Positions 4,050 through 38,943 of a DNA stretch of 39,404 bases are shown here, one piece after another. The DNA is taken from assembly GCA_045649365.1 (NCBI GenBank), contig JAZRPU010000253.1, forward strand, positions 1-39,404, read 5' to 3'. The position numbers and the translations under genes were made by a program. Below the pieces are notes generated by a model, which saw nothing but the letters and a program-made list of their open reading frames with translations, was not told the origin of the DNA and ran no database searches. This DNA is from Eubacteriales bacterium (GTDB taxonomy: Bacteria > Bacillota > Clostridia > Oscillospirales > CAG-382). Every line of letters starts with the position of its first letter. The first letter of the stretch is position 1.

Positions 4050-4053
4050 TAAA

Positions 4054-4611
4054 ATGACCGAAACAAAAAAGATGTACGTTCTTTTATTAAGGTCAAATAG
4101 CTTGCCATCTGTACTTATCAGACTTTTTACAAAAGCGGCTTATACTCATGCTTCTTTAGGATTCTCTGAAGATTGTATGCAGCTTTATAGCTTTGCGAGA
4201 AAATATGAGCATCTTCCTTTACCTGGTTGTCTTATGAATGAAAAAATAGACAGAGGATTTATGGGTAAAGACCCTAAAACCCCTTGTGCTTTGTATTGCT
4301 TTGACGTTCCTATGGAGGTTTTCGAAATGACATACGCTGACGTTATGAGCATGTATGAAAAGCGAATGGGATATAAGTATAATTATTTAGGGCTTGTATT
4401 GTGTGGGCTTGGAATCGCAAGAACAAGAAAAAATAAATATTTTTGTTCGGAATTTGTAGCTCATACCTTAAAAAAGAATGGAGCGTTGGAAATTAAAAAG
4501 CCACCTTCACTTTTCAGACCTACAGATTTCCCGAAGCTATCTCAACTAAAACTCATGTATGAGGGAAATATTGGTGGATTGAGAGATAAAATTTTAATAA
4601 ATTACAATTAA
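4054..4611 (+). CDS. YiiX/YaeF-like permuted papain-fold (NlpC/P60 superfamily) protein
   Basis: His-before-Cys order (YTHASLGF ... YFCSEFVAHTL) is typical of the permuted NlpC/P60 clade. I moved the start to the first ATG after the proA stop; the track start at 4018 lies inside proA. Confidence 0.6.
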   Translation: MTETKKMYVLLLRSNSLPSVLIRLFTKAAYTHASLGFSEDCMQLYSFARKYEHLPLPGCLMNEKIDRGFMGKDPKTPCALYCFDVPMEVFEMTYADVMSMYEKRMGYKYNYLGLVLCGLGIARTRKNKYFCSEFVAHTLKKNGALEIKKPPSLFRPTDFPKLSQLKLMYEGNIGGLRDKILINYN

Positions 4612-7000: not shown

Positions 7001-7059
7001 AAATAACAATGCTTTAAATGCAGCTAAAAAAGAGTATATCCAACAAAAAAGGAGGGAAT

Positions 7060-7605
7060 ATGAGTTTTAAATTTAATACAGAAATGACGCCTGGTGATTA
7101 TTGGGAGTTTTGCAAGTTTACTATGTTTAAAGACCCCAAAGGGAAAAAAACAATTTTGTTTTTGAGAATCCTTGTTGCATTTATTGGCGTTTGGTTTTCT
7201 GCGCAAAGTTTTTGGGAAATTGGTTTTTCGCGAGAAGGGGTTATTTACCTTGTTCGAGTTGTAGTAGTTATCGTTGCTTTTGAGTTGCTTTTGGTAAGCT
7301 TTTTAAAGGGGTTTACTAAATTATTAATTAAATTCAGGGGCAAAGGAGAAACTTTTTATCATCCCAATTCTGTTCTTTCTTTTGATGAGGAAGGCTTAAG
7401 CGAAGATATTCCCGATATTAAGCTGGAATTTAAATATTCAAAAATAGACAGAGCTTTCATTGTTGAAAACAAAGCAATTTATTTTTGTGTTGGTTATCCT
7501 GTGTGGATTGTTCTTCCTTTTTCATCCTTTGAGTCAAAGGAACAAATGGGAGAATTTATAGACTTTATAAAAAACAAATTACCTAACATTAAAACGTGTA
7601 ATTGA
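7060..7605 (+). CDS. YcxB-like membrane protein, function unknown
   Basis: Two central hydrophobic helices (ILFLRILVAFIGVWF; VVVVIVAFELLLVSF). I chose the start at the ATG 4 nt after the GGAGGG RBS (7051-7056) rather than the track start at 7018. Confidence 0.55.
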   Translation: MSFKFNTEMTPGDYWEFCKFTMFKDPKGKKTILFLRILVAFIGVWFSAQSFWEIGFSREGVIYLVRVVVVIVAFELLLVSFLKGFTKLLIKFRGKGETFYHPNSVLSFDEEGLSEDIPDIKLEFKYSKIDRAFIVENKAIYFCVGYPVWIVLPFSSFESKEQMGEFIDFIKNKLPNIKTCN

Positions 7606-7715: not shown

Positions 7716-8258
7716 ATGAAAGCTACAGGAATTGTCAGACGAATAGACGAGCTGGGAAGAGTTGTAATTCCAAAAGAAATAAGGCGCACGTTAAGATTGA
7801 GAGATGGAGAACCTTTGGAGATATATACAGGCAAAGATGGAGAAGTGGTGTTTAAAAAATATTCTCCCGTAGGTGACGTAAGTGCTTTTTCTGCTCAATA
7901 TGCTGAAGCGATTAATAAAAGCAGTGGAATACCCGTTGTTATTTGCGATAAAGACAGCGTTATAGCAGTTTCGGGGGCATCTAAAAGGGACCTTTTGGAA
8001 AAGCCTATATCAACCTCGGTTGCAACACTTTTGGAAAAACGCCAAAGCTTTGCTTCGGGCGGTAATTTGTCCGATTCTCCATCGATAACAGAAGACGGAG
8101 AGGGAAGGGTTTCTTTCCTTTCGCCTATTGTTGCAGACGGTACTGTTGTTGGCGGTGTTATTAGTGTTGCGGGAGAAAAAGGACACGTTCCCGGCGACAC
8201 AGAGCAAAAGCTTATTTCTACAGGAGCAATTTTCCTATCAAAACAGTTAGAGGTTTAA
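7716..8258 (+). CDS. spoVT: Stage V sporulation protein T (AbrB-type N-domain plus GAF-like C-domain regulator)
   Basis: MKATGIVRRIDELGRVVIPKEIRRTLRLRDGEPLEIY is the SpoVT/AbrB swapped-hairpin motif. The 180-aa length matches SpoVT rather than AbrB. Confidence 0.92.
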   Translation: MKATGIVRRIDELGRVVIPKEIRRTLRLRDGEPLEIYTGKDGEVVFKKYSPVGDVSAFSAQYAEAINKSSGIPVVICDKDSVIAVSGASKRDLLEKPISTSVATLLEKRQSFASGGNLSDSPSITEDGEGRVSFLSPIVADGTVVGGVISVAGEKGHVPGDTEQKLISTGAIFLSKQLEV

Positions 8259-8358: not shown

Positions 8359-9666
8359 TTAAGCGTCTTTAAAAATAAAGCTTAACACTTGTTCCGCGCT
8401 CATGGAACGTATATTATCAGGGTCTGTAAGAAAGGGCTTTTCTCCTTCTGTGTACCAAGAAAAAATTCCTGTATCTCCTTCTCTAAAATCAGTGTATTCT
8501 TTAAAGCTTTTGAGAGAAGCGGGATAACGGGCGTACCATTTGCTGAAGTAGGTTTTCATGTAATGGTCTGCCAATTTATACGCCTCGCATTCTTCGCTTT
8601 CTCCAATAGCTCCTATTTGAACACCTCCGCCTGCTTCGCCTGTTCGTGAATCTGATGGGGTAGAATGAGCAATAACAATACTTCCATCATCGCACGTTCC
8701 TAAGCAGAGCCAAACGTGCCCGCTTTTGCTTACAATATCCCCAGGTAAAAGGTCACCCATGGCTGCTATCGGGTTGTTTCCAATGTTTTTTGAGAAGCTT
8801 CCCCAGCCTCTTGAAGAAAAGTTTTTTGCCATTTCAGATGCTGACATAACGTAGCCTTCTTTTCCGTTTTCTGTGTTTACTACGTTATAAATCATCCAGC
8901 CGATATATCCTGAACAATCAAGTCCCGCATAGTAATATTCATTCCATTTACCGTGGGGGAAATAGCTGTTTTCCTTGTCGTTTGAATTTATGTATGAAAA
9001 TCTGTTGTTCTGTTCGTTGAAGAATTTTACCCATGAATCTGCTACGCCAATAGAAACAGCTTCTTTTGATGGGCCTATGTCTTGCCAATCCCAACCGCCA
9101 CCATATATGTAAAGTGATGTTCCAACGGGCATCATGGCAGTTGAAATCAAGTTTGTTATTGTTTTTTCTCCAGCGGATGCGGGCACAACGGGAGTAAATT
9201 TATCATTGGGATTAATTACGGGCGAAATTTCTTCCGCATTAATAACTTTTTTGTTTTCGACGGTTATATTATAGGTATAACCTCGTTTCAGAGTGTTTTG
9301 AATGCTGTATGAATAGTTTCCGTCGGAAGATAGCTCTCCGTTGCTTACAGAAAAAATCTTTTCTTCACTGTCTATTTTGAAAACGTATTTGAATTTGTCC
9401 TTGCCGGAAGTATTGATTCCATCGTTTCCAAATCCGTAAACACCGCAATAAACAGCTTCAAACGTTTCTTTTGATTTCAGACTTTCTTCTGAAAATTGTT
9501 CTTTATCTTCACTTTTTTGCGCTTCGGTGTTGGTGCTTTCCTCTGGAGAGTTAGAAATCTCTGATGATTGTGGAGCTTCGGCTTTGGAGCATGAAGAAAG
9601 CAATAATATGATTAATAAGAATATAGTAAAAGTTTTTAGCTTAAGATTAACTTTTGTTTTTTCCAT
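8359..9666 (-). CDS. Lipoprotein with C-terminal NlpC/P60 (C40) cysteine peptidase-like domain
   Basis: Lipobox LLLSSC. Ser/Glu-rich linker. Catalytic-type motifs GLDCSGYIGW and SGHVWLCLG. Confidence 0.75.
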   Translation of the reverse strand: MEKTKVNLKLKTFTIFLLIILLLSSCSKAEAPQSSEISNSPEESTNTEAQKSEDKEQFSEESLKSKETFEAVYCGVYGFGNDGINTSGKDKFKYVFKIDSEEKIFSVSNGELSSDGNYSYSIQNTLKRGYTYNITVENKKVINAEEISPVINPNDKFTPVVPASAGEKTITNLISTAMMPVGTSLYIYGGGWDWQDIGPSKEAVSIGVADSWVKFFNEQNNRFSYINSNDKENSYFPHGKWNEYYYAGLDCSGYIGWMIYNVVNTENGKEGYVMSASEMAKNFSSRGWGSFSKNIGNNPIAAMGDLLPGDIVSKSGHVWLCLGTCDDGSIVIAHSTPSDSRTGEAGGGVQIGAIGESEECEAYKLADHYMKTYFSKWYARYPASLKSFKEYTDFREGDTGIFSWYTEGEKPFLTDPDNIRSMSAEQVLSFIFKDA

Positions 9667-10013: not shown

Positions 10014-11492
10014 TTATAAAAGAATACATATCATTCCACCGCTTCCTTCGTTTATAACTTTTTGAAGCGTGTCGGAAAGCTTGGTACGGGCATCGGCGGG
10101 CATGTGAGCGATTTTACTGTTCAGCCCTTCTCTTACGAGCTCGTGAAGTGTTTTCCCGAACATATTTGATTCCCAGATTCTTTTCGGGTCTTCCTCAAAT
10201 TCTTTCAACAAAAACTGAACAAGCTCTTCGCTTTGAAGCTCTGTTCCCACCATTGGACTAACTTCTGTTTCTATGTTAGCTTTTATGAGATGAATTGAAG
10301 GCGCTGATGCTTTCAGTTTTACTCCGTATCCTCCCGATTGCTTTACGATTTCAGGCTCTTCCAAAGAGAGTTGGTCTACCGTGGGCATAACTATTCCATA
10401 TCCCGTTTCGTTCAATTCTTCAAGAGCTACCGCAATTTTATCATATTCAGATTTTACTTTCGAAAGCGACGTGAGGAGAGTTATTAAGCCTTCCTTGTCT
10501 TTTATTTCAAAACCACTTTGAGAACCCAAAATATCGTAGAAAACTTCTTCGGGAATGACTACTGAAAGAAAACCTTTTCCTTTTCCCAAAAGTGTTTTTT
10601 CGGGTTTGACGCTTGCTTTCCATTGATTTTCCCCGAAATCAAAGGAGCTTGGAGAAATGTGACGTACCTTTGAAATGTTTTCTCCGGATGAGCGAATCCC
10701 ATTTATTATTTGAGATTTTAACAGATGCTCATCGGGGAGCGTTTTTATCCACGTTGGAATGGTAACGTTTATTTCTTTTACGGGAAATTCCAAAAGAACG
10801 TTTGAAAGAATATCTTTTATATCCTTTTCCGAAAGATTGAAACAGTCTGTGGGAATTACTGACACGCCATATTCTTTTTCTAATTCTTCTGCAAGGGAAA
10901 GACTTTGAGAGGAAAAAGGATTTTTAGAGTTTAACAAAATAACAAAGGGTTTGTTTATAGCTTTAAGTTGAGATACCGCCTTTTTTTCTGCTTCAATATA
11001 GCTTTCTCTTGGTATGTCGCATATACTTCCGTCGGTAGTTATTAAAACGCCTATGGTTGAGTGTTCTTCTATAACCTTTTTTGTTCCTGTTTCTGCTGCT
11101 TTTTCAAAGGGCATTCTTTCTTTTGACCAAGGAGTCATTACCATTCTTGGCTCTCCATCTTCAAAATGTCCCAATGCTCCCTCAACAAGATATCCTACAC
11201 AATCAACTAATTTAATTTTAAAGGAAACGTTGTCATCGAGGGTTATTTCCACAGCTTCGTCGGGAATGAATTTTGGCTCCGTTGTCATAACTGTTCTTCC
11301 TGAAGCGGATTGCGGCATTTCGTCATTGGCTCTGTCTTTAACGAAATTATCTTTTATGTTTGGTAAAACGATTTTCTCCATGAATTTTTTAATAAACGTG
11401 CTTTTCCCCGTTCTTACGGGACCTACAACTCCTATGTAAATGTCACCGCCCGTTCTGGCGGCGATATCCTTGTAAATATCGTTCTTTGCCAT
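10014..11492 (-). CDS. spoIVA: Stage IV sporulation protein A (spore coat basement-layer ATPase)
   Basis: 492 aa. N-terminus IYKDIAARTGGDIYIGVVGPVRTGKSTFIKKFME with a Walker A motif. Full-length SpoIVA pattern. Confidence 0.95.
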   Translation of the reverse strand: MAKNDIYKDIAARTGGDIYIGVVGPVRTGKSTFIKKFMEKIVLPNIKDNFVKDRANDEMPQSASGRTVMTTEPKFIPDEAVEITLDDNVSFKIKLVDCVGYLVEGALGHFEDGEPRMVMTPWSKERMPFEKAAETGTKKVIEEHSTIGVLITTDGSICDIPRESYIEAEKKAVSQLKAINKPFVILLNSKNPFSSQSLSLAEELEKEYGVSVIPTDCFNLSEKDIKDILSNVLLEFPVKEINVTIPTWIKTLPDEHLLKSQIINGIRSSGENISKVRHISPSSFDFGENQWKASVKPEKTLLGKGKGFLSVVIPEEVFYDILGSQSGFEIKDKEGLITLLTSLSKVKSEYDKIAVALEELNETGYGIVMPTVDQLSLEEPEIVKQSGGYGVKLKASAPSIHLIKANIETEVSPMVGTELQSEELVQFLLKEFEEDPKRIWESNMFGKTLHELVREGLNSKIAHMPADARTKLSDTLQKVINEGSGGMICILL

Positions 11493-20797: not shown

Positions 20798-20835
20798 AAA
20801 AAAGCTTCTCTCGAAATACGGGAGAAGCTTTTTGA
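20798..20835 (+). terminator. Rho-independent terminator after tex
   Basis: Stem AAGCTTCTC / GAGAAGCTT with A- and T-flanks and a T-run. Confidence 0.8.
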
Positions 20836-20850
20836 ATATGTAAACAAATA

Positions 20851-20889
20851 CTCTCCCTTGTGGCGTTTAGTCACAAGGGAGAGCTTTTT
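20851..20889. terminator. Second 12-bp hairpin, probably a bidirectional terminator shared with the convergent 815-aa gene
   Basis: CTCTCCCTTGTG / CACAAGGGAGAG with T-rich sequence after the stem on both strands. Confidence 0.7.
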
Positions 20890-20946: not shown

Positions 20947-23394
20947 TTATGCATACAAGTTATAATTTCCCAAGAAGTAGCCTTTTACTTTGAGATAGTC
21001 TGTAGAAGATAAATCGTCATTACTATCTACATCAGCAGCGGCTTTGTATTCATCTTTTAAAGAAATTGTTCCATAGAAATGTGCTTTAATTTGCAAATAA
21101 TCTGAAGCAGAAATTGTTCCTGACCCGTCAGTATCTCCTTTAACAATAACGGTATATTCATTACCATCAATATTCACTTTACAGCCTGTTCCAACGTAAT
21201 CATTATCTTTAAGGGCTTTACCGTCTTTATCTGTAACAGATGCGGTAATGTTAGAGCTTTCAAGGGCAGATATCATTTTGGAAACAGTTGTTCTTTCAAC
21301 AATATTAGGCATTGTGTTGTTTGAGTTGTTGAGATAATAAGAGTTTTCAGGGTCTGCAGTTATGCGAGAATAAAAATCAACTGAATTTTCCGCGCCGAGA
21401 ACGCAACAGTAATCGCCTCTTGTTGTGCCTCTAACGTCTTTAGCTTCAAATATAAATTCTGCATCATCTGCTACACCGTCAAGGATACGGAATTGGATTG
21501 TAACAACGAGGTCACCATCGTTGATAAGTCCGTGATATTCTTCACCTTCTTTTGCTCCTTGATATTGAAGGAGGTCAATAAAGCGGAGGTGATAATATTT
21601 GTTTTCGGGTTCGTATGCAGAAATTTGTTCATAACGGCGCATTGGGAATTCCATGCCGCCTGTTACCAATGTGTACATAGGAACTTTTGTCATGAATACG
21701 TCCATAGGAGTTTCATACTCTTGAACCACACCTTCAACAAGTGTGGGGTCGAATGTGAGTTTGAACTCAACAGCGTCAAGTTCAATTTTAACGTCTTTGA
21801 TAGAGAGAACAACGTCGATGATAGAGCTGTCTTCTTCATTTAACGTTGCGCTCATGTCCAAACCAAAATAACCATTTTCAGTAAAATCTTCAGAGGAATC
21901 TTCAGAGGGATCTTCAGAGGAATCTTCGGATGATTCATCTTCAATCTTAACAATATTATATTGTTGGCAAATATTTCCTTCATAAAATGACCAGTATTGA
22001 ACGTTGAAGTCAACACCGTTTACGTCAATAACTTTATCCTGAATGCCAACGGGCGAAATTGCATATTTGCCGTTTACTTCGAAGATGCGGAATGTTTGTT
22101 CTGTATCAGAAACGTATACGTTTGCAAGAGCGGCGGAGAGGTCGCCTTGGATGGATAGATACTTGCCGAGCGCTTTGTTGGTGATTGTGTATGCATTTGT
22201 AGCATCAACCTTTACAAAGTGCCATACTTGAGCATCGCTGCCATTTGCTACATCTGCAATAACGTTGGTATAATCGTCTGCGGTGAAAGTTTTGTCAAGA
22301 CCAGGAACATTGATGTTTGCATAGAAGTCATCGCCCAGGTCTACAAATTTTTTGTAAACATCAAAACCTCCAACGAGATAGCCTTTAATTTGAGTATAGT
22401 CCGTAGAGGAGATTATTCCGTCACCGTTAGTATCAGCAGCTTGGAAATATTCGCTTTCTAAAGGATAAACGTTAAGGAAATAATATTTCGCTTTAAGATA
22501 ATCCGTTGAGCTAATATCACCGGACCCGTCTACGTCGCCTTTAACAATAACGGTATATTCGTTACCATCAATAGTTGCTTTACAGCCTGTTCCAACGTAA
22601 TCATTATCCTTAAGAGCTTTACCGTCTTTATCTGTAACAGATGCGGTAATGCCTGATTTTTCAAGGTCAGATATCATTTCAGAAGCAGTTGTTCTTTCAA
22701 CAACGTTGGGCATTGTGTTGTTTGAGTTGTTGAGATAATAAGGGTTTTTAGAGCCCGCGGGTAAACGTGGGTCTAAAGCAGATGAATTATCTGCACCGGA
22801 AACGAAGTCCAAATAGCTTCTTGTTATACCTATAACGTTTTTAGCTTCAAATACAAATTTTGCATTTGCGGGAACAGTATCAAGAATGCGGAATTGAACT
22901 GTAACAACGAGGTCGCCATCGTTGATAAGTCCGTGATATTCTTCACCTTCTTTTGCTCCTGCATATTGAAGGAGGTCGATGAAGCGGAGGTGATAATATT
23001 TGTTTTTGGGTTCGTATGTGCAGATTTGTTCATAACGGCGCATAGGAATTTCCATGCCGCTTGTTACCAATGTGTACATAGGGACTTTTGTCATGAAAAC
23101 GTCCATAGGACCTGCAGACTTTTGAACAACACCTTCAACAAGTGTAGGGTCGAACGTGAGGAGAAGTTCTACTGAATCAAGTTCAGTCTTAATATCTTTG
23201 ATAGAAAGAACTACGTCGATGATAGAGCTGTCTTTTTCATTCAACGTTGCGCTCATGTCGAAGCCAAAAGCGTAGTCGGATGAATCGTCAGTAGCTGATT
23301 CATTTTCGAGAGAAGCTGCGGATGCTGTGTAGGAAATGCAAGTTGTGACAAGCATCATAACTACAAGAGCGAAAGATAAGATTCTCTTTGTCAT
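20947..23394 (-). CDS. Secreted modular protein: [cohesin-like, X-module, dockerin], ricin-type beta-trefoil, acidic linker, [cohesin-like, X-module, dockerin]
   Basis: Signal peptide (ASAAS). Two copies of a module of about 305 aa (aa 43-347 and 510-815). Four EF-hand-like dockerin loops (GDVDGSGDISSTD, ADTNGDGIISSTD, GDTDGSGTISASD, ADVDSNDDLSSTD). QxW-type repeats in aa 350-484. Confidence 0.85.
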   Translation of the reverse strand: MTKRILSFALVVMMLVTTCISYTASAASLENESATDDSSDYAFGFDMSATLNEKDSSIIDVVLSIKDIKTELDSVELLLTFDPTLVEGVVQKSAGPMDVFMTKVPMYTLVTSGMEIPMRRYEQICTYEPKNKYYHLRFIDLLQYAGAKEGEEYHGLINDGDLVVTVQFRILDTVPANAKFVFEAKNVIGITRSYLDFVSGADNSSALDPRLPAGSKNPYYLNNSNNTMPNVVERTTASEMISDLEKSGITASVTDKDGKALKDNDYVGTGCKATIDGNEYTVIVKGDVDGSGDISSTDYLKAKYYFLNVYPLESEYFQAADTNGDGIISSTDYTQIKGYLVGGFDVYKKFVDLGDDFYANINVPGLDKTFTADDYTNVIADVANGSDAQVWHFVKVDATNAYTITNKALGKYLSIQGDLSAALANVYVSDTEQTFRIFEVNGKYAISPVGIQDKVIDVNGVDFNVQYWSFYEGNICQQYNIVKIEDESSEDSSEDPSEDSSEDFTENGYFGLDMSATLNEEDSSIIDVVLSIKDVKIELDAVEFKLTFDPTLVEGVVQEYETPMDVFMTKVPMYTLVTGGMEFPMRRYEQISAYEPENKYYHLRFIDLLQYQGAKEGEEYHGLINDGDLVVTIQFRILDGVADDAEFIFEAKDVRGTTRGDYCCVLGAENSVDFYSRITADPENSYYLNNSNNTMPNIVERTTVSKMISALESSNITASVTDKDGKALKDNDYVGTGCKVNIDGNEYTVIVKGDTDGSGTISASDYLQIKAHFYGTISLKDEYKAAADVDSNDDLSSTDYLKVKGYFLGNYNLYA
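20950..21867 (-). repeat. Cohesin-like / X / dockerin module, copy 2 (aa 510-815 of the 815-aa protein)
   Basis: See copy 1. The dockerin part is more diverged than the cohesin-like and X parts. Confidence 0.85.
21887..21934 (-). repeat. Four tandem 12-nt units encoding the acidic SSED linker
   Basis: Plus-strand ATCTTCAGAGGA / ATCTTCAGAGGG / ATCTTCAGAGGA / ATCTTCGGATGA, in frame (ESSEDSSEDPSEDSSED). Confidence 0.8.
21943..22347 (-). other. Ricin-type beta-trefoil lectin-like module (aa 350-484 of the 815-aa protein)
   Basis: Repeated Q-x-aromatic motifs at trefoil-like spacing: AQVWHF, EQTFRIF, VQYWSF, QQYNIV. Confidence 0.55.
22354..23268 (-). repeat. Cohesin-like / X / dockerin module, copy 1 (aa 43-347 of the 815-aa protein)
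   Basis: Direct repeat of 20950-21867 at a 1401-nt offset. By eye about 90 percent nucleotide identity over the best-conserved stretches, for example 22881-23120 versus 21480-21719. Confidence 0.85.
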
Positions 23395-23450
23395 TTTTTA
23401 AAAAAATCCTTTCAAATTGTTTGAATTTGTTGAAATAAATTCATATTCAT

Positions 23451-23479
23451 ATTATAACATATAAAGAATTATATGTCAA
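23451..23479 (-). promoter_or_regulatory. Consensus sigma-A promoter of the 815-aa dockerin gene
   Basis: Minus strand: TTGACA (23479-23474), 17-nt spacer, TATAAT (23456-23451). Confidence 0.65.
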
Positions 23480-23555
23480 TACAAAAAGCGCGGGAGATGT
23501 TATGGCTTTTGATATAAAACAGAGCTTTAACGCACAATTTTTATAAACGGTGTAA

Positions 23556-23596
23556 CGAAAAAAGCTGTGCTCCCAAGCGAGAACACAGCTTTTTAT
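23556..23596 (-). terminator. Rho-independent terminator after the 744-aa dockerin gene
   Basis: Stem AAAAAAGCTGTG / CACAGCTTTTT with an inner extension, and a T6 run on the minus strand. Confidence 0.8.
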
Positions 23597-23607
23597 AAGA
23601 TTAGAAA

Positions 23608-25842
23608 TTATTTGTAAATGTCAATATTACCGAGGAAGTAGCCTTTGATTTGGATATAGTCTGTTGCAGATATTGCTCCATCACCATCAGTATCGGCTGC
23701 TTTGAAATATTCATTCTCTAAAGAATAAACGTTGAGGAAAACACGTTTTACGTTAAGATAATCCGTTGCGGTAACATCTCCCGAACCGTCTACGTCGCCT
23801 TTAATGATAATGGTATATTCGTTTCCGTCAGAGGCTTTAACTTTACAGCCCGTACCTACAAAAGCGGTACTGTCTAAAGCGTTTCCATCTTTATCTGTTA
23901 TCACAGCGGAAATACCATGATTTCCAAGAGCGGAAACTATTTCGGAAGCGGTTGTTTTTTCAACAACGTTGGGCATTGTGTTATTTGCGCTGTCGAGATA
24001 ATGTTCGCTTTCGGGGTCTATTGGCAAGAAAGTGTTTACCGTTACTGTTGCAGATGCTTCTGCACCGGGAACTCCAATGAGTCCTTCTGTTGCTGTTCCT
24101 TTAACGTCTTTTGCCTCAAATACAAGGTCTGTGTTTGAAGGCACGCCATCAAGAAGGCGGAATTGAATTGTAATGATGATGTCTTCATCGTTTATAAGTC
24201 CGTTATATTCTTCACCGGGCTTTGCATTTGCATATTGGAGAAGGTCAAGGAATCTGAGGTGATAGTATTTATTATCAGGTTCGTATGTACAAATCTGTTC
24301 ATAACGCGGCATGAGGATTTCTGCAGTGCCTGTTTGCATTGTGTACATAGGAACTTTGGTCATGAATACATCCATGGGTCTTTCTGATTCCTGAACAACG
24401 CCTTCAACAAGCGCGGGGTCAAAGGTGAGAAGAAGCTCGATAGTGCAAAGCTCTTCTTTGATGTCTTTAATAGAAAGAACTACGTCGATAATAGAGCTGT
24501 CTTCGGCATTGATTGATGCGCTCATGTTAAATCCAAAGTATTTGTCTTCGGGAAGTATTTCTTCAGAGGACTCTTCAGAAACAATGGCATCTTCAGAAGA
24601 CTCTTCAGAAACAACAACGTCTTCAGAGGACTCTTCAAAAACATTTTCATTTCCAAAAACCTGTATTTCTCCAACGGTGAGAACGTAAGCGGGGTTTGTA
24701 AATTCAACTTGAATATAACGAGCTGAAGCAGCTTTTGTGGGAGCATAAGTGTAGCTATAGCTTGGTCCTGCAAGCAATTCTTCATCTGTAGTGTATGCAG
24801 AGAAATAGTAGAAATTGTTTCCATCCGTGGAAGTCTTAACTTTTGCGGAGTATTGACGGTTACCGTCTATTACAATACCGCTAACAGTAACTCTTTTAAT
24901 GTCCGTGAAAACTTTGCCTAAATCGATTGTAACAAGGTTTACTGAATTTGTTCCAACAAAAGCAACGGTTGCACCTGATGTTTCATAAAAAGGAATCAAT
25001 CCGTCTGTAAGCATAACTCCGTCATCTTCCTTGCCTTCAAGGAAAGCACCGCTTACAGTATAGCTTTTGCCTTCTGCATAGTTGTATTCGGGGAAATATT
25101 CAAAAGAGATTTCTTCGGAGCTTTCTTCGGAGCTTTCTTCTTCATCACCTGAAGCACCAATAGAAACAAAATCAATTCCGTTCTCCTTGGCATAAGCTTC
25201 CGCTGCGGAGCCTTCTTTGCCGCAAATATTTTCAAGAGCAAAGCAGCAACCAAAAGCATCTTTTCCGATAGTTTTAACGGAAGAGGGGATGGTTATTGTT
25301 TTGAGGGATTCACAAGTGTAAAATGCATTTTCTCCAATGTAGGTAATGGAATTAGTAAGAATTACATTTTTAAGGGAGAGGCAATAGAAAAAGAGTTGAC
25401 CTTCAATTTTTGATATTGAAGAGGGAATTTCTATTTCTGTAAGGCTTGAACAAAAACCAAAAGCAGAGTATCCAATAGACTTAACGGATTCGGAAATTGA
25501 AACTGTTTTAACGTTTGTAAGCTCATAGAATGCATATTGGCTGATAGAGGTAACTCCGTCTTCAACAACTATTGAAGTAATCGAGTCTTTTTGGAGATAC
25601 CAAGGGGTGCGGTTGAGCATGTCATAAGTTCTCATTTCTCCATCGCCGGAGATAATGAGAGCACCGTTTTCAATAGTCCATGAAAGATTATCTTTATAAT
25701 AATCTGACATATCTCCAACACCTATAACGCCTTCAAAAACGTTTTCGGAATTAATACCACTTGCTAAAGCTGTTATGGAAAAAGCCGATAAAAGCATTGC
25801 AAGAGATAAGAAAAGGGATAAAATTTTGCGTGTCTTTTTCAT
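23608..25842 (-). CDS. Secreted modular protein: BspA-type leucine-rich repeats, discoidin (F5/8 type C)-like module, cohesin-like module, X-module, dockerin
   Basis: Signal peptide (ITALA/SG). LRR_5-type repeats (SISESVKSIGYSAFGFCSSLTEIEIPSS..., IGENAFYTCESLKTITIPSSVKTIG). ARYIQVEF...VGEIQVFG is discoidin-like. C-terminal GDVDGSGDVTATDYLNVK / ADTDGDGAISATDYIQIKGY. Confidence 0.85.
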   Translation of the reverse strand: MKKTRKILSLFLSLAMLLSAFSITALASGINSENVFEGVIGVGDMSDYYKDNLSWTIENGALIISGDGEMRTYDMLNRTPWYLQKDSITSIVVEDGVTSISQYAFYELTNVKTVSISESVKSIGYSAFGFCSSLTEIEIPSSISKIEGQLFFYCLSLKNVILTNSITYIGENAFYTCESLKTITIPSSVKTIGKDAFGCCFALENICGKEGSAAEAYAKENGIDFVSIGASGDEEESSEESSEEISFEYFPEYNYAEGKSYTVSGAFLEGKEDDGVMLTDGLIPFYETSGATVAFVGTNSVNLVTIDLGKVFTDIKRVTVSGIVIDGNRQYSAKVKTSTDGNNFYYFSAYTTDEELLAGPSYSYTYAPTKAASARYIQVEFTNPAYVLTVGEIQVFGNENVFEESSEDVVVSEESSEDAIVSEESSEEILPEDKYFGFNMSASINAEDSSIIDVVLSIKDIKEELCTIELLLTFDPALVEGVVQESERPMDVFMTKVPMYTMQTGTAEILMPRYEQICTYEPDNKYYHLRFLDLLQYANAKPGEEYNGLINDEDIIITIQFRLLDGVPSNTDLVFEAKDVKGTATEGLIGVPGAEASATVTVNTFLPIDPESEHYLDSANNTMPNVVEKTTASEIVSALGNHGISAVITDKDGNALDSTAFVGTGCKVKASDGNEYTIIIKGDVDGSGDVTATDYLNVKRVFLNVYSLENEYFKAADTDGDGAISATDYIQIKGYFLGNIDIYK
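23611..24537 (-). repeat. Cohesin-like / X / dockerin module, copy 3 (aa 436-744 of the 744-aa protein)
   Basis: Same module in the neighbouring gene (FGFNMSASINAEDSSIIDVVLSIKDIKEEL...). By eye about 75-80 percent nucleotide identity to copies 1 and 2 in the core. Confidence 0.8.
24561..24650 (-). repeat. Three tandem 30-nt units encoding the linker (EESSEDVVVS)x3
   Basis: Plus-strand CTTCAGAGGACTCTTCAGAAACAATGGCAT / CTTCAGAAGACTCTTCAGAAACAACAACGT / CTTCAGAGGACTCTTCAAAAACATTTTCAT. Confidence 0.8.
24652..25107 (-). other. Discoidin / CBM32-like beta-sandwich module (aa about 246-397)
   Basis: Flanked by acidic linkers. The terminal ARYIQVEF....YVLTVGEIQVFG resembles the last strands of F5/8 type C domains. 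Confidence 0.45.
25111..25146 (-). repeat. Tandem 12-nt units (TTCTTCGGAGCT x2 plus a partial unit) encoding EESSEESSEE
   Basis: Direct reading of 25111-25146. Confidence 0.7.
25228..25590 (-). other. BspA-type LRR region (aa about 85-205)
   Basis: Repeats of about 23 aa with the pattern I..SV..IG..AF..C.SL..I.IP. Confidence 0.7.
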
Positions 25843-25962
25843 AGTTGTCCTTTCTGCTGTTTAAATCAGCTATAAAATTCATAATAAAACAATGACAGAT
25901 GAAAAATGCTGTTTTTAGTGTTATTCAATAAATTGTATTATGCACAAATTCATCTATGATAC

Positions 25963-25991
25963 ATTATATCATGCATGCGTTTAAAATGCAA
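25963..25991 (-). promoter_or_regulatory. Sigma-A promoter of the 744-aa dockerin gene
   Basis: Minus strand: TTGCAT (25991-25986), 17-nt spacer, TGa-TATAAT extended -10 (-10 hexamer 25968-25963). Leader of about 115 nt. Confidence 0.65.
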
Positions 25992-26062
25992 GTTTTTTGA
26001 TCTAAACAATATTAATTTTACAAGTTTATTGATTTTTTATCATTAAGAGTTAATATTGATTT

Positions 26063-26100
26063 AAAAAAACAAAAGCCGCGCTTACATAAATAAGCACAGC
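26063..26100 (-). terminator. Rho-independent terminator after the transglutaminase-like dockerin gene
   Basis: Minus-strand RNA forms a 10-bp stem (two G-U pairs) with a 6-nt loop, followed by UUUUGUUUUUUU. Confidence 0.55.
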
Positions 26101-26115
26101 TTTAATATATAGATA

Positions 26116-27480
26116 TTATTTTAACATCAATGCTTTAATAGCAAGATAATCTGTTGTATCAATTTCCAAGTCATGATTATAATCCGCCGCGGCAAAGAAT
26201 AGTGAATTAAAGGAGAACAGCTCTAAAAATGCGCCTTTTATTCGAAGATAGTCTGTTGTAGATATGTCTCCGCTTCCGTCGGTATCTCCCGAAACGTAAG
26301 CCCAATATACGTTATGAAGCTGGGAATTGATAATGTCGCCCGTTCCAATAAAGCAATTTGTTTTTATTTCTCCGTTGCTGTCGGTTACAAATGCGGTTTC
26401 ATCATCAAGCAAAGCTTTTATTCCCTCAACGTCTGTTTGTGGCGGGCATTGATAAAGGTTGACTGCTTCTACGTGAAAAATTGAACTTGCGGTATGTTTC
26501 CCATCTGTTGCTTCCACTAAAACGGAATATTCTCCCATTTCATTTAGCGTTATACTGATTTCTTCGCTTTTTAGTGACGTTCCTATGCATTCTCCGTCTT
26601 TTATTTCATCGTTGGCGGTTGTATTTCCGTTTATTATATAAACGGTGTACGTTATACCATTATTGTTTTGAGAAACGTCGGGAAGCAAGGTTACAGCTCC
26701 GCCAGAATAAACGTATATGGTATTACCGTCGGAAAGTCCGTTCAAAAGGGGAGCGTGTACCCCTTCGATTTGAAACCCTCCGAATTCCGCCATGTCATCT
26801 GCTCGATTGAAGCCTTTAATCTTTCCTGAAAGTTGAGAATCCGTTTTGCAAAAACGATATTTCCCCACAGTTTTATCAGCAGTTCTATTTGTTATGTTAT
26901 CTTCTACTTGCGGGTCGAAATTATACCAAACTCCGTCAATCAGAACGCTTACCCAAGTGTGCCCTGTATATCCTCCACTTACGGTGCTTGTCTGCCCAGT
27001 TATCGTGTATGCTTCAAATCCAATAGCACGAAGCATTATCATGTAAAGGGCAGAGTAATACGTACAAGCACCTACCTTTAATTTTAAAATTCGCAATGCT
27101 CTGAAAACTTCATAAGCATCGTCTGTGGATTTATATGGGACTTCGTTAAGAATTGGATATATGTCTTTGTTTATATGTATGAGGTAGGAATTATCATATT
27201 CAAAGGTTTCTACCATATATTTGTATAAGTACCACACCTTATCGTATGTGGTCATTTCTGACGTGAATCCTTCTGCAAAGATTTCTTCAATCTGACTGTC
27301 AAGAGATTTATATCCTGTTTTTATAGGATTTAACTCTGCTCCGTTGAGAAGCTCTTTTACGGATAACGCTTTTACGTTCCTATCTGATACATGAATAAAA
27401 ACTGTAAGCGTCAGGGCAAAAGTGAGTAAAAAAGCAATTAATCTGTTCCACGTTTTAAAAGTTGTTTTGATTTTTGCCAC
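26116..27480 (-). CDS. Transglutaminase-like cysteine enzyme with N-terminal signal/anchor, Ig-like middle region and C-terminal X-dockerin
   Basis: Cys-His-Asp core (VGACTYYSALYM, GHTWVSVL, WYNFDPQ). C-terminal GDTDGSGDISTTDYLRIK / ADYNHDLEIDTTDYLAIK. GTG start only 12 nt after the ogg stop codon. Confidence 0.8.
   Translation of the reverse strand: MAKIKTTFKTWNRLIAFLLTFALTLTVFIHVSDRNVKALSVKELLNGAELNPIKTGYKSLDSQIEEIFAEGFTSEMTTYDKVWYLYKYMVETFEYDNSYLIHINKDIYPILNEVPYKSTDDAYEVFRALRILKLKVGACTYYSALYMIMLRAIGFEAYTITGQTSTVSGGYTGHTWVSVLIDGVWYNFDPQVEDNITNRTADKTVGKYRFCKTDSQLSGKIKGFNRADDMAEFGGFQIEGVHAPLLNGLSDGNTIYVYSGGAVTLLPDVSQNNNGITYTVYIINGNTTANDEIKDGECIGTSLKSEEISITLNEMGEYSVLVEATDGKHTASSIFHVEAVNLYQCPPQTDVEGIKALLDDETAFVTDSNGEIKTNCFIGTGDIINSQLHNVYWAYVSGDTDGSGDISTTDYLRIKGAFLELFSFNSLFFAAADYNHDLEIDTTDYLAIKALMLK
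26119..26289 (-). other. Dockerin module of the transglutaminase-like protein (aa 398-454)
   Basis: Two EF-hand-like loops, each followed by a DYL.IK helix. Confidence 0.7.
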
Positions 27481-27492
27481 TTCCTTTTTTAT

Positions 27493-29963: not shown

Positions 29964-30671
29964 TTATTTTTTACTGTTTTTTATTCTGAAATCTTCAGAA
30001 GTCAGAAGTGCAATTATTCGTTCGATAGAATCCTTTGAATTTCCCCAAGGCAAATCGTCAAATCTGTAATCAAACTTTTTAATGAAAAGGCTTACGTCTT
30101 CGTACAGCGCATCCATAGACGAAAAAAGAATGCTTTGAGCGGTTTTTTCAAGCTCTGCTCTTTTCTCTTTGTCAATGTTTTTCGATGCTTCTAAAAGACG
30201 TTTGTAATGAGGCAAACAGAAGGTTTTTTGATTTTCGAATTTTTTTCTGAATTCTTTTTCCTCTTCATAAAGGTAAACGGAGGTTAAAAACATAGCTGAA
30301 AGGTTGTTTTCGATCCTGTCGCAAATATAACAGCTTTCTTCTAGTTTTGATATGTTTTTAACAGGCTTTGCAGAATGGTCTTTAGAAAAGAATCCACCTT
30401 GTTTAACTTCTTTTTTTACCGCTTCAACGTGGCTTTGAAGTATTAGAGCTATTCCCAATCTGTTTTTTCTTGGAAGCATTTTTCCAAAATGATAACGACA
30501 AAATCCCTTTTTGTTGGTTTCTATTCTGACATCGGGCTCCATCATTGATGCACCGAGTATCAAGTCAAGCTCATTCTCTTCCAGCTTTCTGTAAAGAGCG
30601 CAAAAAGGACAATCATCTCCCGATTTTTCAAAGGCTTCGTTAACGGGTATTGTATAAATATGTTCTCTCAT
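29964..30671 (-). CDS. Conserved hypothetical protein with duplicated CxxC...CxxH motif (DUF6062-like)
   Basis: C21-x2-C24-x33-C58-x2-H61 and C114-x2-C117-x34-C152-x2-H155, 235 aa. The start lies 2 nt after the stop codon of the preceding dehydrogenase gene. Confidence 0.7.
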   Translation of the reverse strand: MREHIYTIPVNEAFEKSGDDCPFCALYRKLEENELDLILGASMMEPDVRIETNKKGFCRYHFGKMLPRKNRLGIALILQSHVEAVKKEVKQGGFFSKDHSAKPVKNISKLEESCYICDRIENNLSAMFLTSVYLYEEEKEFRKKFENQKTFCLPHYKRLLEASKNIDKEKRAELEKTAQSILFSSMDALYEDVSLFIKKFDYRFDDLPWGNSKDSIERIIALLTSEDFRIKNSKK

Positions 30672-32942: not shown

Positions 32943-33386
32943 TTATTGTTGTTTTAAATTCAATTGCATAATAATTGCATTTTTTTCCCGATAAAATCCT
33001 TTTCGGATTCCCACTTTTTCAAATCCCATTCGTGAATACAGAGAAATGGCGGGAACATTTTCTTCTTCAACTTCTAAGAAAATGCTTTCTGCATTTTTGG
33101 AAGCGCAAAACTCTATAAGAGCTGAAACGATTCTTTTTCCCGTTCCTTTTCCTCTTTGGGATTTCAAAACAGCAACGGTGAAAATTTCCGCTGAATCGGG
33201 AGAAGAACATATTGCGCCTCCAACACCGTGTACGTCTTCGTTTTCTAAGGCAACAACATATTTGTAATTATCTTTATCAATTATCTCTTTTAGCTGTTCT
33301 TCGCTCCACGCTGTAGATAAACAGCTTTTTTCCAGCTTTGAAGCGGATTTGCAAAGTTCTTGTGATAAAACGCGTATTTCTGTCAT
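32943..33386 (-). CDS. rimI: GNAT acetyltransferase, ribosomal-protein-alanine N-acetyltransferase type
   Basis: 147 aa. QRGKGTGKRIV acetyl-CoA motif. Located immediately upstream of tsaD, as in rimI-tsaD operons. Confidence 0.8.
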   Translation of the reverse strand: MTEIRVLSQELCKSASKLEKSCLSTAWSEEQLKEIIDKDNYKYVVALENEDVHGVGGAICSSPDSAEIFTVAVLKSQRGKGTGKRIVSALIEFCASKNAESIFLEVEEENVPAISLYSRMGFEKVGIRKGFYREKNAIIMQLNLKQQ

Positions 33387-34132
33387 TAAGACAACCTCAC
33401 AGTAAGCTTGTCAGGGCAAAGAACGTATTTTCCAGCCCCGATATCGTATAAATACGAAATTCCGTTTTCATCTGTAGCAAAAATAACTGTGTAGTAAAGT
33501 CCTGGATATCTTTGGGATTTAAGCTTTATTCTCAAAGATGAAACTTGCTGTTTAGGCGGGGTTACTTCTTCGCCTGCCGTGAGAGTGTCGTATATGAGAT
33601 TGATATATTCTTCGTCATTTCTGTTAGTGCCTCCGTTTTGAAGATATTCATCGGGGGCAACAAAATAATCGTAAGGATAATCTGACGCGCCTGAACATAT
33701 ATCTGCAGAAACGGGCATAAAGTTTGAAAGAGTTATATTTGCCGCGCTGCTATGGCGCAATACTGTTCCCTTGATTTTGTTTTTGTATTCAACTATATAA
33801 GCGGGTGGGGTACCTTCCACATGCATAAAGTCTATAAAGCAATATTCATCTCCGTCAAGAAGCCCGAAAACACCGTCTGTATTAACCGCTTCAACGGAAC
33901 GGTTTAATGCATAATATTTGTTTCCGTCTTCATCGATAAGATAACTTTCTTCAGCAACAAGCTTTGAAAGACTTGCTTTGTATTTCCATTCTTTAATTAA
34001 ATCAGGCAAAAAAACAGAAGATATCAATATGATTATTATAGCGCCCACAATAATGAGGGCAATTTGGAAATCGCGTTTTTCTTTTTCAAATTTAATTTTT
34101 TCTTTGTTTTGCTTTTCGTTTTTGTTTTTCAT
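33386..34132 (-). CDS. Hypothetical single-pass membrane protein
   Basis: Lys-rich N-terminus, one TM helix (IALIIVGAIIIILISSVFL) and an extracytoplasmic domain of about 190 aa with no motif I recognise. ATG at 34132 follows a GGAAG RBS (the track start at 34150 is a TTG). The stop codon overlaps the rimI ATG (TAATG). Confidence 0.6.
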   Translation of the reverse strand: MKNKNEKQNKEKIKFEKEKRDFQIALIIVGAIIIILISSVFLPDLIKEWKYKASLSKLVAEESYLIDEDGNKYYALNRSVEAVNTDGVFGLLDGDEYCFIDFMHVEGTPPAYIVEYKNKIKGTVLRHSSAANITLSNFMPVSADICSGASDYPYDYFVAPDEYLQNGGTNRNDEEYINLIYDTLTAGEEVTPPKQQVSSLRIKLKSQRYPGLYYTVIFATDENGISYLYDIGAGKYVLCPDKLTVRLS

Positions 34133-34146
34133 TCGGTGGCTTCCAA

Positions 34147-34632
34147 TCAATAACCTATTTTACCTAAACTATCGTCGTCTGTTATCCAGTCTTCAACGTT
34201 GTAAACGGAATATGTATCCATAGTTTCTCTTACTATAACTCGTTTGATTCCCGCGTTGATAACTAATCTTTTGCACATCTGACAGCTTGTTGTGTTTCCA
34301 ACAGCTTCTCCTGTTTTGGGGTCTGTACAAACAAGATATAAATCTGCACCAAGCATTTGTTCGCGTGAGGCGCTGATTATGGCGTTTGCTTCTGCATGAA
34401 CAGAACGGCAAAGCTCGTATCGTTCCCCTCTGGGAATATTCATTTCATCTCTGAGACATTTTTTTCTGTCACAGCAGTTAATTCTTCCTCTTGGTGCGCC
34501 TGCATATCCCGTTGATACGATTTCATCGTTTTTAACTATAATTGCGCCAAATTTGCGTCTTAGGCAAGTTCCTCTGCTTGACACGGTTTGTGCAATATTC
34601 AAATAATAATTCTCTTTACTTATTCTATCCAT
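34147..34632 (-). CDS. dCMP (deoxycytidylate) deaminase, ComEB-type
   Basis: Zinc motifs VHAEANAI and CQMCKRLVINAGI, 161 aa. Confidence 0.88.
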   Translation of the reverse strand: MDRISKENYYLNIAQTVSSRGTCLRRKFGAIIVKNDEIVSTGYAGAPRGRINCCDRKKCLRDEMNIPRGERYELCRSVHAEANAIISASREQMLGADLYLVCTDPKTGEAVGNTTSCQMCKRLVINAGIKRVIVRETMDTYSVYNVEDWITDDDSLGKIGY

Positions 34633-36901: not shown

Positions 36902-36946
36902 TCCCTTTGGAAAATCTTTAAAAGACAGTCCAAAGGGAATTTTTAT
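36902..36946. terminator. Bidirectional terminator between convergent hom and the GerA-family gene
   Basis: 10-bp stem TCCCTTTGGA / TCCAAAGGGA (36902-36911 / 36929-36938) with T-rich flanks on both strands. Confidence 0.75.
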
Positions 36947-38331
36947 TTTGTTTTTTCTCCTTCTTTTCTCCCTAAAACTTTTTTTGGCACTACTACAACG
37001 TAGTCAAGCATTCCCACGGGGTCAAAAGGGAAAAGCGGATACATGTAGCTGTTTCCGAAGCTCTTTTTCCGAAGCATGAGAACTGCCCATATTATAGTGA
37101 TTGCTAATATACCGTATAGTCCCGAAAAATATCCTGCAAATAACATTATAAATCGAAGTATTACTGCGGGAGAAGCAAAAGCGGGGGTGATATATGCGGA
37201 AACCGCGGATATAGCAACGATAACAATTATAGTTATACTTGAAATTCCCGCCTCTACCGCTGCATCGCCTAAAATGAGTGAGCCGACGAGTCCTGCGGCA
37301 TCACCTACAGTTCGGGGCATTCTGACTCCAACTTCACGTATCAGCTCAAACAAAACAAGCATTAGTAGCATTTCCCAAAACATTGATACTGCTGAATTTT
37401 CTTCAAGAGAATGAATAAATTCCAAAAGCTTTTTGGGGAACGTTTGGGAGTGGTGATATATAAGAGCAATAAAAACAGCGGGGAAATATATATTTAACAG
37501 AAAGGCGAAGAAACGAACAAATCTTAAAAATGAAGAGTACCACGGATTTTTGAGATAATCCTCCGCGCTTTGAAAGGCTTCTATAAAGTAATATGGTGCG
37601 GTAAGGACGTATGGACTTCCATCACAAATTATACCGATTCTTCCCGATAAAAGCTTTGATGCGGCTTTATCCACTTTTTCTGTGCTTCCAACGGAGGGGA
37701 AAAATTTTGATCGATTACCCTCGATTACCGTTTCAAGATTGGCAGAATCTATGATATATTCTCCGGAGAATTTTTGAATCTTGTGTCTTACTTCATTTAA
37801 CGTTTTTTCATCTGCTCGCCCCTCAACGTAACATATAAAAATCGTTGTTTGCGCGGCTTTCCCTATGGAAAGCATTTCAACTCTCAATTTGTCTGTTCTG
37901 ATTATTTTTCGGAGCATGGACACGTTGTTCTCACCGTTTTCCGTAAATCCCGCTTTGGGACCTCTTACGGTAACGTCACTTTCGGGTTCGCTTACTGCTC
38001 TGCCAACGAAAGTATCTGCAGGGCAGAAAGCTGTATAGATGCGGTCACTTTTAATAGCTACGATCACACTTCCGCGCAAAAGCATTGTTATAAGCATGTC
38101 AAGGTTTTCTTCCTTTATTACCGCGGCGCAGGTAAGAAGTTTTTGAAAATCTCCGCGAAAATCGTTAAGATTTGTTTTTTTCATTAAAGGAAGAACTATT
38201 CCCTCTGACATGTATCTTCTGTCTGTCATGTTTTTTATGAACATAATAAAACAATCTGAAGAAATATCTCTTACAATAAGGTCAGCGGGATTTCCCATTT
38301 TTGACAGTATTTCGTTTTTGAATTTTTCCAT
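36943..38331 (-). CDS. GerA-family spore germination protein (A-subunit / SpoVAF-like), orphan
   Basis: N-terminal soluble domain (ADLIVRDISS..., GRAVSEPESDVTVRGPKAGFTE) plus a C-terminal multi-TM region typical of GerAA/GerKA/SpoVAF. The ATG at 38331 follows an AAAGGA RBS. The track's 81-codon 5' extension covers the divergent promoter. Confidence 0.85.
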   Translation of the reverse strand: MEKFKNEILSKMGNPADLIVRDISSDCFIMFIKNMTDRRYMSEGIVLPLMKKTNLNDFRGDFQKLLTCAAVIKEENLDMLITMLLRGSVIVAIKSDRIYTAFCPADTFVGRAVSEPESDVTVRGPKAGFTENGENNVSMLRKIIRTDKLRVEMLSIGKAAQTTIFICYVEGRADEKTLNEVRHKIQKFSGEYIIDSANLETVIEGNRSKFFPSVGSTEKVDKAASKLLSGRIGIICDGSPYVLTAPYYFIEAFQSAEDYLKNPWYSSFLRFVRFFAFLLNIYFPAVFIALIYHHSQTFPKKLLEFIHSLEENSAVSMFWEMLLMLVLFELIREVGVRMPRTVGDAAGLVGSLILGDAAVEAGISSITIIVIVAISAVSAYITPAFASPAVILRFIMLFAGYFSGLYGILAITIIWAVLMLRKKSFGNSYMYPLFPFDPVGMLDYVVVVPKKVLGRKEGEKTK

Positions 38332-38422
38332 AGATAATCCTTTGATGTTTTTAAGCTTTTTGATTATTATTCCCGAGAAAAGAGTAAATATAAATGTGAA
38401 AAAGCATTTAATGTTGGTAAAC

Positions 38423-38451
38423 TTGACAAAAAAATTACTCCATGTTATACT
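38423..38451 (+). promoter_or_regulatory. Sigma-A promoter of the 140-aa gene
   Basis: TTGACA (38423-38428), 17-nt spacer, TGt-TATACT extended -10 (38446-38451). Confidence 0.6.
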
Positions 38452-38520
38452 GAAAAAAATATGGCGTTGTTTGGTTTTAAAACTACTAAAAAATAAGTTT
38501 AATATTCGGGAGGAATTTTT

Positions 38521-38943
38521 TTGATTGAAAGAAATTTTATAATAAATCCACCTGCTTATTATGAAAAGGCACACGGAGAAATTCCTGAAATAAACCGAAT
38601 GCTTTTGACTTTGTCAAAGAAAATCGATTTGTTTACATATACCTTTTCAATGAGCTGCATAAGCATTTCGCCTATAATAGTTCCCGGTGAGATGAGAAAT
38701 AATGGGATTTATTCAGAAAAGGCGTTGATATGTTTGGAAAAAGGCTTGGCGAGTATTTCTTTATTTTGCGATTACGATGAATTTTATCACGGAGATTTGG
38801 AGAAGAAAAAACAAATAATAGTAGAAAACGTTTTAGCGTCTTTAAAAATAGTGAAAAACAAAACTACAGAGTATTTTGACTTTGAGAAAATAAAGGAAGA
38901 CATAATTAGGTTTTCAAATTCATCTTTTGTTTCTGTTGTTTAA
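38521..38943 (+). CDS. Hypothetical cytoplasmic protein, 140 aa, no recognisable motif
   Basis: TTG start 6 nt after a GGGAGG RBS, with its own promoter and a downstream terminator. Confidence 0.55.
   Translation: MIERNFIINPPAYYEKAHGEIPEINRMLLTLSKKIDLFTYTFSMSCISISPIIVPGEMRNNGIYSEKALICLEKGLASISLFCDYDEFYHGDLEKKKQIIVENVLASLKIVKNKTTEYFDFEKIKEDIIRFSNSSFVSVV

Follow-up and report, generated by a model that had tools for sequence, protein, structure and literature searches.

We examined three adjacent minus-strand genes, here called A, B and C, on a complete NCBI contig of 39,404 bp from a Eubacteriales bacterium (JAZRPU010000253.1; the window), which encode exported proteins bearing dockerins and, in A and B, a module of about 165 amino acids (aa) that belongs to a highly divergent cohesin family. 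An earlier reading of the same DNA, made from its letters and referred to below as the original prediction, had described three secreted "X-dockerin" proteins here, and the open reading frames (ORFs) of 815, 744 and 454 aa lie exactly at the positions it had given (Table 1). Hydropathy confirmed a hydrophobic export sequence at each N-terminus, and all of the peptide strings that had been quoted are present in the proteins. Scanning the window in six frames with hidden Markov models (HMMs) built in this analysis found exactly three cohesin-like modules, four X modules and four dockerins, all of them inside genes A, B and C. The three proteins are singletons, known only from this contig.

Protein A carries two units of X module plus dockerin (X-Doc), each following a cohesin, with a lectin module between the two cassettes. 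Pfam found Dockerin_1 twice (E 1.7e-21) and RicinB_lectin_2 (PF14200) at 33.6 bits, above the cutoff of 25.6, and the protein reads as an adaptor scaffoldin. In protein B, Pfam matched the BspA-type leucine-rich repeats (LRRs) of LRR_5 (PF13306; E 3e-32, 111.6 bits) and Dockerin_1 (E 5e-12). A discoidin-like region of B scored 16.3 bits against F5/8 type C (PF00754), under the cutoff of 28.2, but shares 39% identity (E 2e-33) with part of the relative P0006 that itself scores 34.2 bits, above the threshold; in the reading favoured below B is also a putative adaptor scaffoldin. Protein C matched Transglut_core (PF01841; E 3e-13, 50.3 bits, cutoff 23) and Dockerin_1 (E 4e-6), has a predicted catalytic triad of Cys139, His174 and Asp189 in GAC, GH and FD motifs, and is, in the same reading, a putative dockerin-borne transglutaminase-like thiol enzyme. 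The N-terminal hydrophobic segment may stay uncleaved and act as a membrane anchor, in which case protein C would itself be tethered to the cell. The dockerin, LRR, ricin-B, discoidin-like and transglutaminase-like modules named in the original prediction were all recovered in this way, the F5/8 type by homology to P0006. An X-Doc does stand at the C-terminus of every protein as predicted, though A also holds an internal one, so the unit is not exclusively C-terminal. We considered whether gene A could be an assembly fusion or artefactual duplication and rejected this, as its two cassettes are only 80% identical in DNA and the cohesin-ricin-cohesin order is common to relatives.

Table 1. Features of the A-B-C locus and module architectures of loci carrying the same cohesin family.
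Feature	Position	Strand	Description and basis
Gene A	20947..23394	-	815 aa; signal peptide, cohesin 1, X-Doc 1, ricin-B lectin, acidic linker, cohesin 2, X-Doc 2
A signal peptide	23317..23394	-	aa 1-26; basic n-region, hydrophobic core, ASA motif; sequence and hydropathy, cleavage predicted
A cohesin 1	22777..23271	-	aa 42-206; divergent cohesin family; family search, AlphaFold2/Foldseek, HMM scan
A X module 1	22543..22743	-	aa 218-284; short pre-dockerin module; HMM scan
A dockerin 1	22351..22542	-	aa 285-348; internal; Pfam, solved-dockerin match
A ricin-B-type lectin module	21940..22347	-	aa ~350-485; Pfam match 388-460
A cohesin 2	21376..21870	-	aa 509-673; HMM scan
A X module 2	21142..21342	-	aa 685-751; HMM scan
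A dockerin 2	20950..21141	-	aa 752-815; Pfam, solved-dockerin match
Gene B	23608..25842	-	744 aa; signal peptide, BspA-type LRR, F5/8-type-C-like module, cohesin, X-Doc
B LRR_5 repeats	25237..25590	-	aa 85-202; Pfam, E 3e-32
B discoidin / F5/8 type C-like module	24637..25083	-	aa ~254-402; Pfam below threshold, homolog above threshold
B cohesin	24043..24546	-	aa 433-600; family search, HMM scan
B X module	23803..24006	-	aa 613-680; HMM scan
B dockerin	23611..23802	-	aa 681-744; Pfam
Gene C	26116..27480	-	454 aa, GTG start; N-terminal signal/anchor, transglutaminase-like core, beta-rich region, X-Doc
C N-terminal hydrophobic segment	27385..27441	-	aa 14-32; signal peptide or uncleaved membrane anchor; hydropathy
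C transglutaminase-like core	26911..27264	-	aa 73-190, with Cys139, His174, Asp189; Pfam
C X module	26293..26472	-	aa 337-396; divergent copy; HMM scan
C dockerin	26119..26292	-	aa 397-454; Pfam
Promoter-like site, gene A	23451..23479	-	TTGACA-17-TATAAT, 12/12, with TG; perfect extended sigma-70-type
Promoter-like site, gene B	25963..25991	-	TTGCAT-17-TATAAT, 11/12, with TG
Terminator after gene C	26072..26103	-	hairpin and U-run
Terminator after gene B	23559..23594	-	hairpin and U-run
Two strong hairpins	20799..20884		between gene A and the convergent Tex gene
L002	9272-12037		three cohesins and Cys-rich repeats
L004			cohesin and C-terminal transmembrane segment
L006			three cohesins and YG-like repeat region; no Pfam confirmation
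L008, L011			cohesin, F5/8 and KPGDAG-transmembrane-KKARRA tail
L009, L010			cohesin, Flg_new repeats and X-Doc; adjoins X-Doc-PASTA-GHL10 protein

The module of about 150 aa in the original prediction, found here to span about 165, was compared there with cohesins, and we conclude from its homology and modelled fold that it is a genuine cohesin of a divergent family. The window copies matched no sequence in the PDB, and word-indexed homolog searches returned nothing for the module, four hits for the X-Doc and three for the family alignment. Searched exhaustively with HMMER, a set of 1.84 billion proteins yielded no more than 41 cluster representatives for the three window copies, which makes this a small family. 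Pfam Cohesin was matched individually by 22 of 32 aligned members (best E 1.8e-10). Against a cutoff of 24.1 bits, P0033 scored 38.1 bits, its match covering model positions 8-130 of 139, and P0041 scored 46.5 bits. All seven members of a distant subgroup matched it, and hhalign joined this subgroup to the window-type subgroup with a probability of ~100% (E 1e-38, 164 columns). When the family profile was compared with PDB sequences, the sole sub-threshold matches were the scaffoldin cohesins 4uyp_A (E 0.0026) and 5lxv_A (E 0.055). An AlphaFold2 model built on the 32-sequence alignment reached a predicted local distance difference test score (pLDDT) of 96.9 and a predicted template modelling score (pTM) of 0.90, and cohesins (types I and II and those of R. 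flavefaciens) made up about 40 of its 50 top Foldseek matches in the PDB, with E down to 1e-5 and a target TM score up to 0.75. Type II cohesins (1qzn, 4u3s_A, 5m0y_A) were among the best. Inserted among the canonical strands of the modelled fold, at about module residues 50-90, are an additional helix and additional strands, which coincide with the family-specific conserved motifs PMDxFMT, RYEQIC and GLINDGD.

It could be argued that the module is instead an adhesin beta-sandwich of a generic Ig-like or CNA type, which binds host or plant ligands, and that the dockerins pair with unrelated partners. The window copies themselves gave no match to Pfam Cohesin (PF00963) even at E<=1 (proteins A and B and module copy 1), and CNA/MSCRAMM N2 domains topped the Foldseek list of an earlier AlphaFold2 model, which we set aside because it came from a three-sequence alignment, had a pLDDT of 64 and gave an ambiguous mix of CNA-type and cohesin matches. 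A few CNA/MSCRAMM-type domains persist among the matches of the confident model, but these are mostly cohesins, as are the only sub-threshold PDB sequence matches; together with the homology to Pfam-verified cohesins and the occurrence of the module in scaffoldin-like architectures, this makes the adhesin explanation very improbable.

The four dockerins (PF00404) are above the Pfam cutoff and also match solved dockerin structures, and they show the type I build of two segments of ~22 residues, each with an EF-hand-like calcium loop and a helix. The calcium-loop pattern is kept in all eight repeats, with D or L rather than G at loop position 6 in two of the second repeats. At positions 10-11 and 17, the putative recognition positions, where type I dockerins touch the cohesin in C. 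thermocellum complexes, the eight repeats are near-identical ([S/A/T][T/S] and K, respectively), suggesting that the four dockerins share one specificity and possibly bind in dual fashion. Each dockerin is preceded by a conserved module of ~65 aa, whose copies are 58-87% identical among A and B and 27-36% identical to that of C. This module had no Pfam match, its profile found nothing significant among PDB sequences (best E 0.12, to unrelated proteins), and a literature search for the motif found nothing. A metagenome scan with the X-Doc gave only distant pre-dockerin relatives, similar short modules being found in diverse, unrelated Firmicutes proteins. The "X-dockerin" label of the original prediction is therefore apt for position only: a module does stand before each dockerin, but it matches no known X module. 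The type II X-dockerin/cohesin pairs (C. thermocellum CipA-SdbA, A. cellulolyticus ScaA-ScaB) resemble the present arrangement in having a module directly N-terminal to the dockerin, and type II cohesins are among the best fold matches of the cohesin model. The present X module, in contrast, spans only ~65 aa and lacks a sequence match to any solved one.

Pfam and hydropathy showed neither LPXTG nor SLH nor a C-terminal anchor in A, B or C, as predicted, and just one hydrophobic segment in each, at the N-terminus, so they are not of the anchoring-scaffoldin type. Anchors are found on relatives. A genome scan with the window-only alignment found nothing, and the intermediate family alignment gave ten loci in species-representative genomes, all from uncultured Oscillospiraceae/Eubacteriales metagenome-assembled genomes (MAGs), one of them from dairy-cattle cecum. 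Of the 41 cluster representatives, about 12 have a sortase-type or transmembrane anchor at the C-terminus, and in about 10 dockerins stand there. The tail of P0033 (PKTGDAG) is above the NCBIfam Rumino_NPXTG and Pfam Gram_pos_anchor thresholds. The closest anchored relatives (P0002, P0006, P0008, P0023, L008 and L011) share a conserved C-terminal tail of KPGD(A/S)G, about 20 hydrophobic residues and KKARRA; we rejected this as a recognised sortase signal, since the NCBIfam and Pfam models do not accept it, and it may represent either a variant sorting signal or simply a membrane anchor. P0002 and P0008, which lie in tandem on one metagenome contig, have the signal peptide, cohesins and ricin module of protein A with a membrane anchor in place of the terminal X-Doc, and protein A thus resembles an anchored scaffoldin that is tethered by a dockerin instead. 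L008 and L009 belong to a single MAG (JAZOCZ01), which therefore encodes an anchored cohesin protein, an adaptor with cohesin and X-Doc, and an enzyme bearing an X-Doc. By analogy with these relatives, the anchor for an A-B-C assembly is probably encoded off the contig and similar to theirs, which fits the expectation of the original prediction that it lies elsewhere.

Some multi-cohesin relatives (P0004, aa ~490-830, and L002) also carry long arrays of a Cys-rich repeat of ~35 aa, GHxWxxATCTxPxTCSxCG, which has no convincing Pfam match and is unusual for an extracellular scaffoldin. Four single-cohesin relatives (P0009, P0010, P0021 and P0026) have in common a C-terminal domain of ~300 aa (...AMYGYYAKxYF) with no Pfam match.

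In our reading, to which we give a probability of roughly 0.8, the locus supplies an uncultured, spore-forming member of the Oscillospiraceae with three parts of a cohesin-dockerin assembly on its cell surface, A and B being adaptor scaffoldins and C a dockerin-borne enzyme. A and B would be exported by their signal peptides with their binding modules for glycans or proteins (ricin-B in A; BspA-type LRR and discoidin in B), along with two divergent cohesins and two X-Doc units in A and one of each in B. The calcium-loop dockerins would insert into cohesins, at least one X-Doc per protein docking to a cohesin of a cell-anchored scaffoldin encoded outside the contig, while the cohesins of A and B would recruit other proteins with an X-Doc, among them C and perhaps A and B themselves. 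In this way a complex of several tiers would form and present lectin, LRR and enzyme modules on the cell; calcium-dependent binding, surface location and a role in adhesion are likewise predicted.

Some points weigh against this reading. Beside the missing Pfam matches of the window copies and the residual CNA-type fold matches described above, no anchor, sortase or additional dockerin gene was found in the 39-kb contig. On most characterised scaffoldins (CipA, ScaA, ScaB) the cohesins and the dockerin of one polypeptide differ in specificity, and the cohesins of the locus therefore need not bind its own X-Docs. This precedent favours a strict hierarchy without self-association, in which the X-Docs of A, B and C would bind another cohesin type on an anchoring scaffoldin encoded off the locus and the cohesins of A and B would recruit a different class of dockerin. 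Two distinct dockerin types do co-occur with cohesins of the family, and the CarboxypepD_reg-associated dockerins of P0004 and P0016 are an example of such an other class. However, every anchored relative that we found bears the same cohesin family, X-Doc genes adjoin this family both in the window and at L009 and L010, and Amy4 of R. bromii shows that self-recognition occurs (Ze et al. 2015, PMC4611034). We consider a strict hierarchy less likely than not.

Rather closer to an even chance, though still short of it, is that A, B and C are ordinary parts of a larger polysaccharide-degrading system of the cellulosome or amylosome kind, with catalytic dockerin proteins encoded elsewhere, so that the non-enzymatic look of the locus would be an effect of sampling one contig. 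Ricin-B and F5/8 modules are glycan-binding types. In two related MAGs a gene lying ~2 kb upstream of the cohesin...X-Doc gene (L009:6064-7929, L010:6055-7926) encodes a protein in which an X-Doc near the N-terminus precedes PASTA and a GHL10 glycosyl-hydrolase-like domain. The original prediction of "no carbohydrate-active enzyme" thus holds for A, B and C, which have no catalytic carbohydrate-active enzyme (CAZyme) domain, but not for the X-Doc in general. About half of the dockerin proteins of R. flavefaciens are non-CAZyme and yet belong to its cellulosome (Rincon et al. 2010, PMC2930009). Against such a system, no dockerin-borne glycoside hydrolase (GH) is encoded in A, B, C or elsewhere in the window, which places the locus outside a strict definition of cellulosome or amylosome; the GH3 gene of the window has no dockerin, and none of the 41 cohesin-family representatives examined has a classical GH domain.

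A bolder version of the favoured assembly would have A recognise the X-Docs of B and B those of A, so that the two polymerise on the cell surface into a branched fibre or mesh, held together non-covalently, for adhesion rather than polysaccharide degradation, with C cross-linking the mesh covalently or proteolytically processing the mesh or its target. If true, this would amount to an "adhesosome" free of CAZymes and peculiar to one clade of uncultured Oscillospiraceae, but we think it unlikely.

Comparison with known systems showed that the novelty implied by the original prediction was overstated. R. flavefaciens FD-1 has a cluster of group 4b dockerin genes, ORF01263-01267, in which five tandem genes encode four SIGN-transglutaminase-like-Doc proteins and a SIGN-LRR-Doc protein, and on its dockerin proteins there are 28 LRR modules, 10 transglutaminase modules and 17 cohesins, while 32 of the dockerins are internal (PMC2930009). 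Head-to-tail genes for transglutaminase-like-Doc and LRR-Doc proteins with signal peptides, a conserved region directly upstream of the dockerin, internal dockerins and proteins with both cohesin and dockerin are therefore all documented in one genome, and the last is also known from R. bromii (PMC2930009, PMC4611034). The present locus differs from that of FD-1 in that its cohesins belong to a different, Pfam-invisible family, its host is an uncultured member of the Oscillospiraceae and no cellulolytic enzymes are in view; since two of the three proteins carry cohesins, A and B would be adaptors and not only cargo.

The R. bromii amylosome resembles the locus in being a non-cellulolytic cohesin-dockerin system with cohesin and dockerin on one protein. 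In it (Amy4/Sca1, Sca2) the cohesin and dockerin of one protein bind each other, dockerins of LRR and peptidase proteins have been shown experimentally to bind cohesins, and an anchoring cohesin protein has a sortase signal (PMC4611034). Its cargo, in contrast, consists mostly of GH13 amylases, and sequence searches do detect its cohesins, whereas the order here is Coh-XDoc-lectin-Coh-XDoc and any binding between the modules is predicted. Many ruminococcal cohesins are likewise invisible to HMMs, with groups 4-7 recovered only by AlphaFold2, and the scaffoldins of R. difficilis are membrane-anchored and carry LRR and immunoglobulin (Ig) adhesion domains (Minor et al. 2026, bioRxiv 10.64898/2026.02.05.704116). 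The present family resembles those groups in its HMM-escaping cohesins of conserved fold, scaffoldins with C-terminal transmembrane anchors and adhesion-type modules; its hosts are Oscillospiraceae/Eubacteriales MAGs and not named Ruminococcus species, and it may correspond to one of the groups.

What is new here, and well supported, is the divergent cohesin family, rare and carried by uncultured Oscillospiraceae, together with the unusual architecture of protein A. Since this kind of cell-surface assembly system is already known, the novelty is modest and the current picture of how cohesin-dockerin systems function is unchanged. The observations of the original prediction were confirmed, while its interpretation is partly supported. 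The family, so far confined to uncultured gut Oscillospiraceae/Eubacteriales MAGs, adds to the cohesins missed by HMM annotation, and the profile from this analysis could be used for re-annotating such MAGs. The locus also offers a compact set of three cohesins and four dockerins for asking about uses in adhesion beyond polysaccharide degradation.

Genes A and B each have their own near-consensus promoter and terminator, as had been proposed (12/12 and 11/12 sites; Table 1), and a hairpin with a U-run lies 3′ of each of the three genes. Of the two hairpins that separate gene A from the convergent Tex gene, the second has A-runs and T-runs on both flanks, so this is probably a bidirectional terminator. 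The GTG of gene C lies 12 nt past the stop codon of the upstream OGG gene and a promoter of its own is not evident; gene C is probably co-transcribed with OGG. The AGGA motif of gene C (26116-27492) sits almost against the start codon, and no alternative in-frame ATG, GTG or TTG was seen in the first ~40 codons.

The genes around the locus are housekeeping and sporulation genes, and homologs of SpoVT, SpoIVA and GerA (7716-8258, 10014-11492 and 36943-38574) indicate a spore-forming lineage. The Tex protein of the window clusters at 90% identity or more with MAGs labelled Ruminococcaceae/Oscillospiraceae bacterium. The acidic Ser/Glu/Asp linkers between modules (ESSEDSSED...) are encoded by short in-frame tandem DNA repeats at 21885-21927, 24560-24643 and 25106-25140; far longer (DVTSE)n linkers occur in relatives, and linker length therefore looks evolutionarily labile. 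Elsewhere in the window are a DUF6062 gene (29964-30671) and three ORFs with no Pfam match (4018-4611, 7018-7605 and 33386-34150). A minus-strand ORF of 435 aa at 8359-9666 has a lipoprotein-like N-terminus (LLLSSCSK) and no Pfam match at E<=1e-4, and its C-terminal DCSGY...GHVW motif pair is reminiscent of NlpC/P60-type cysteine peptidases.

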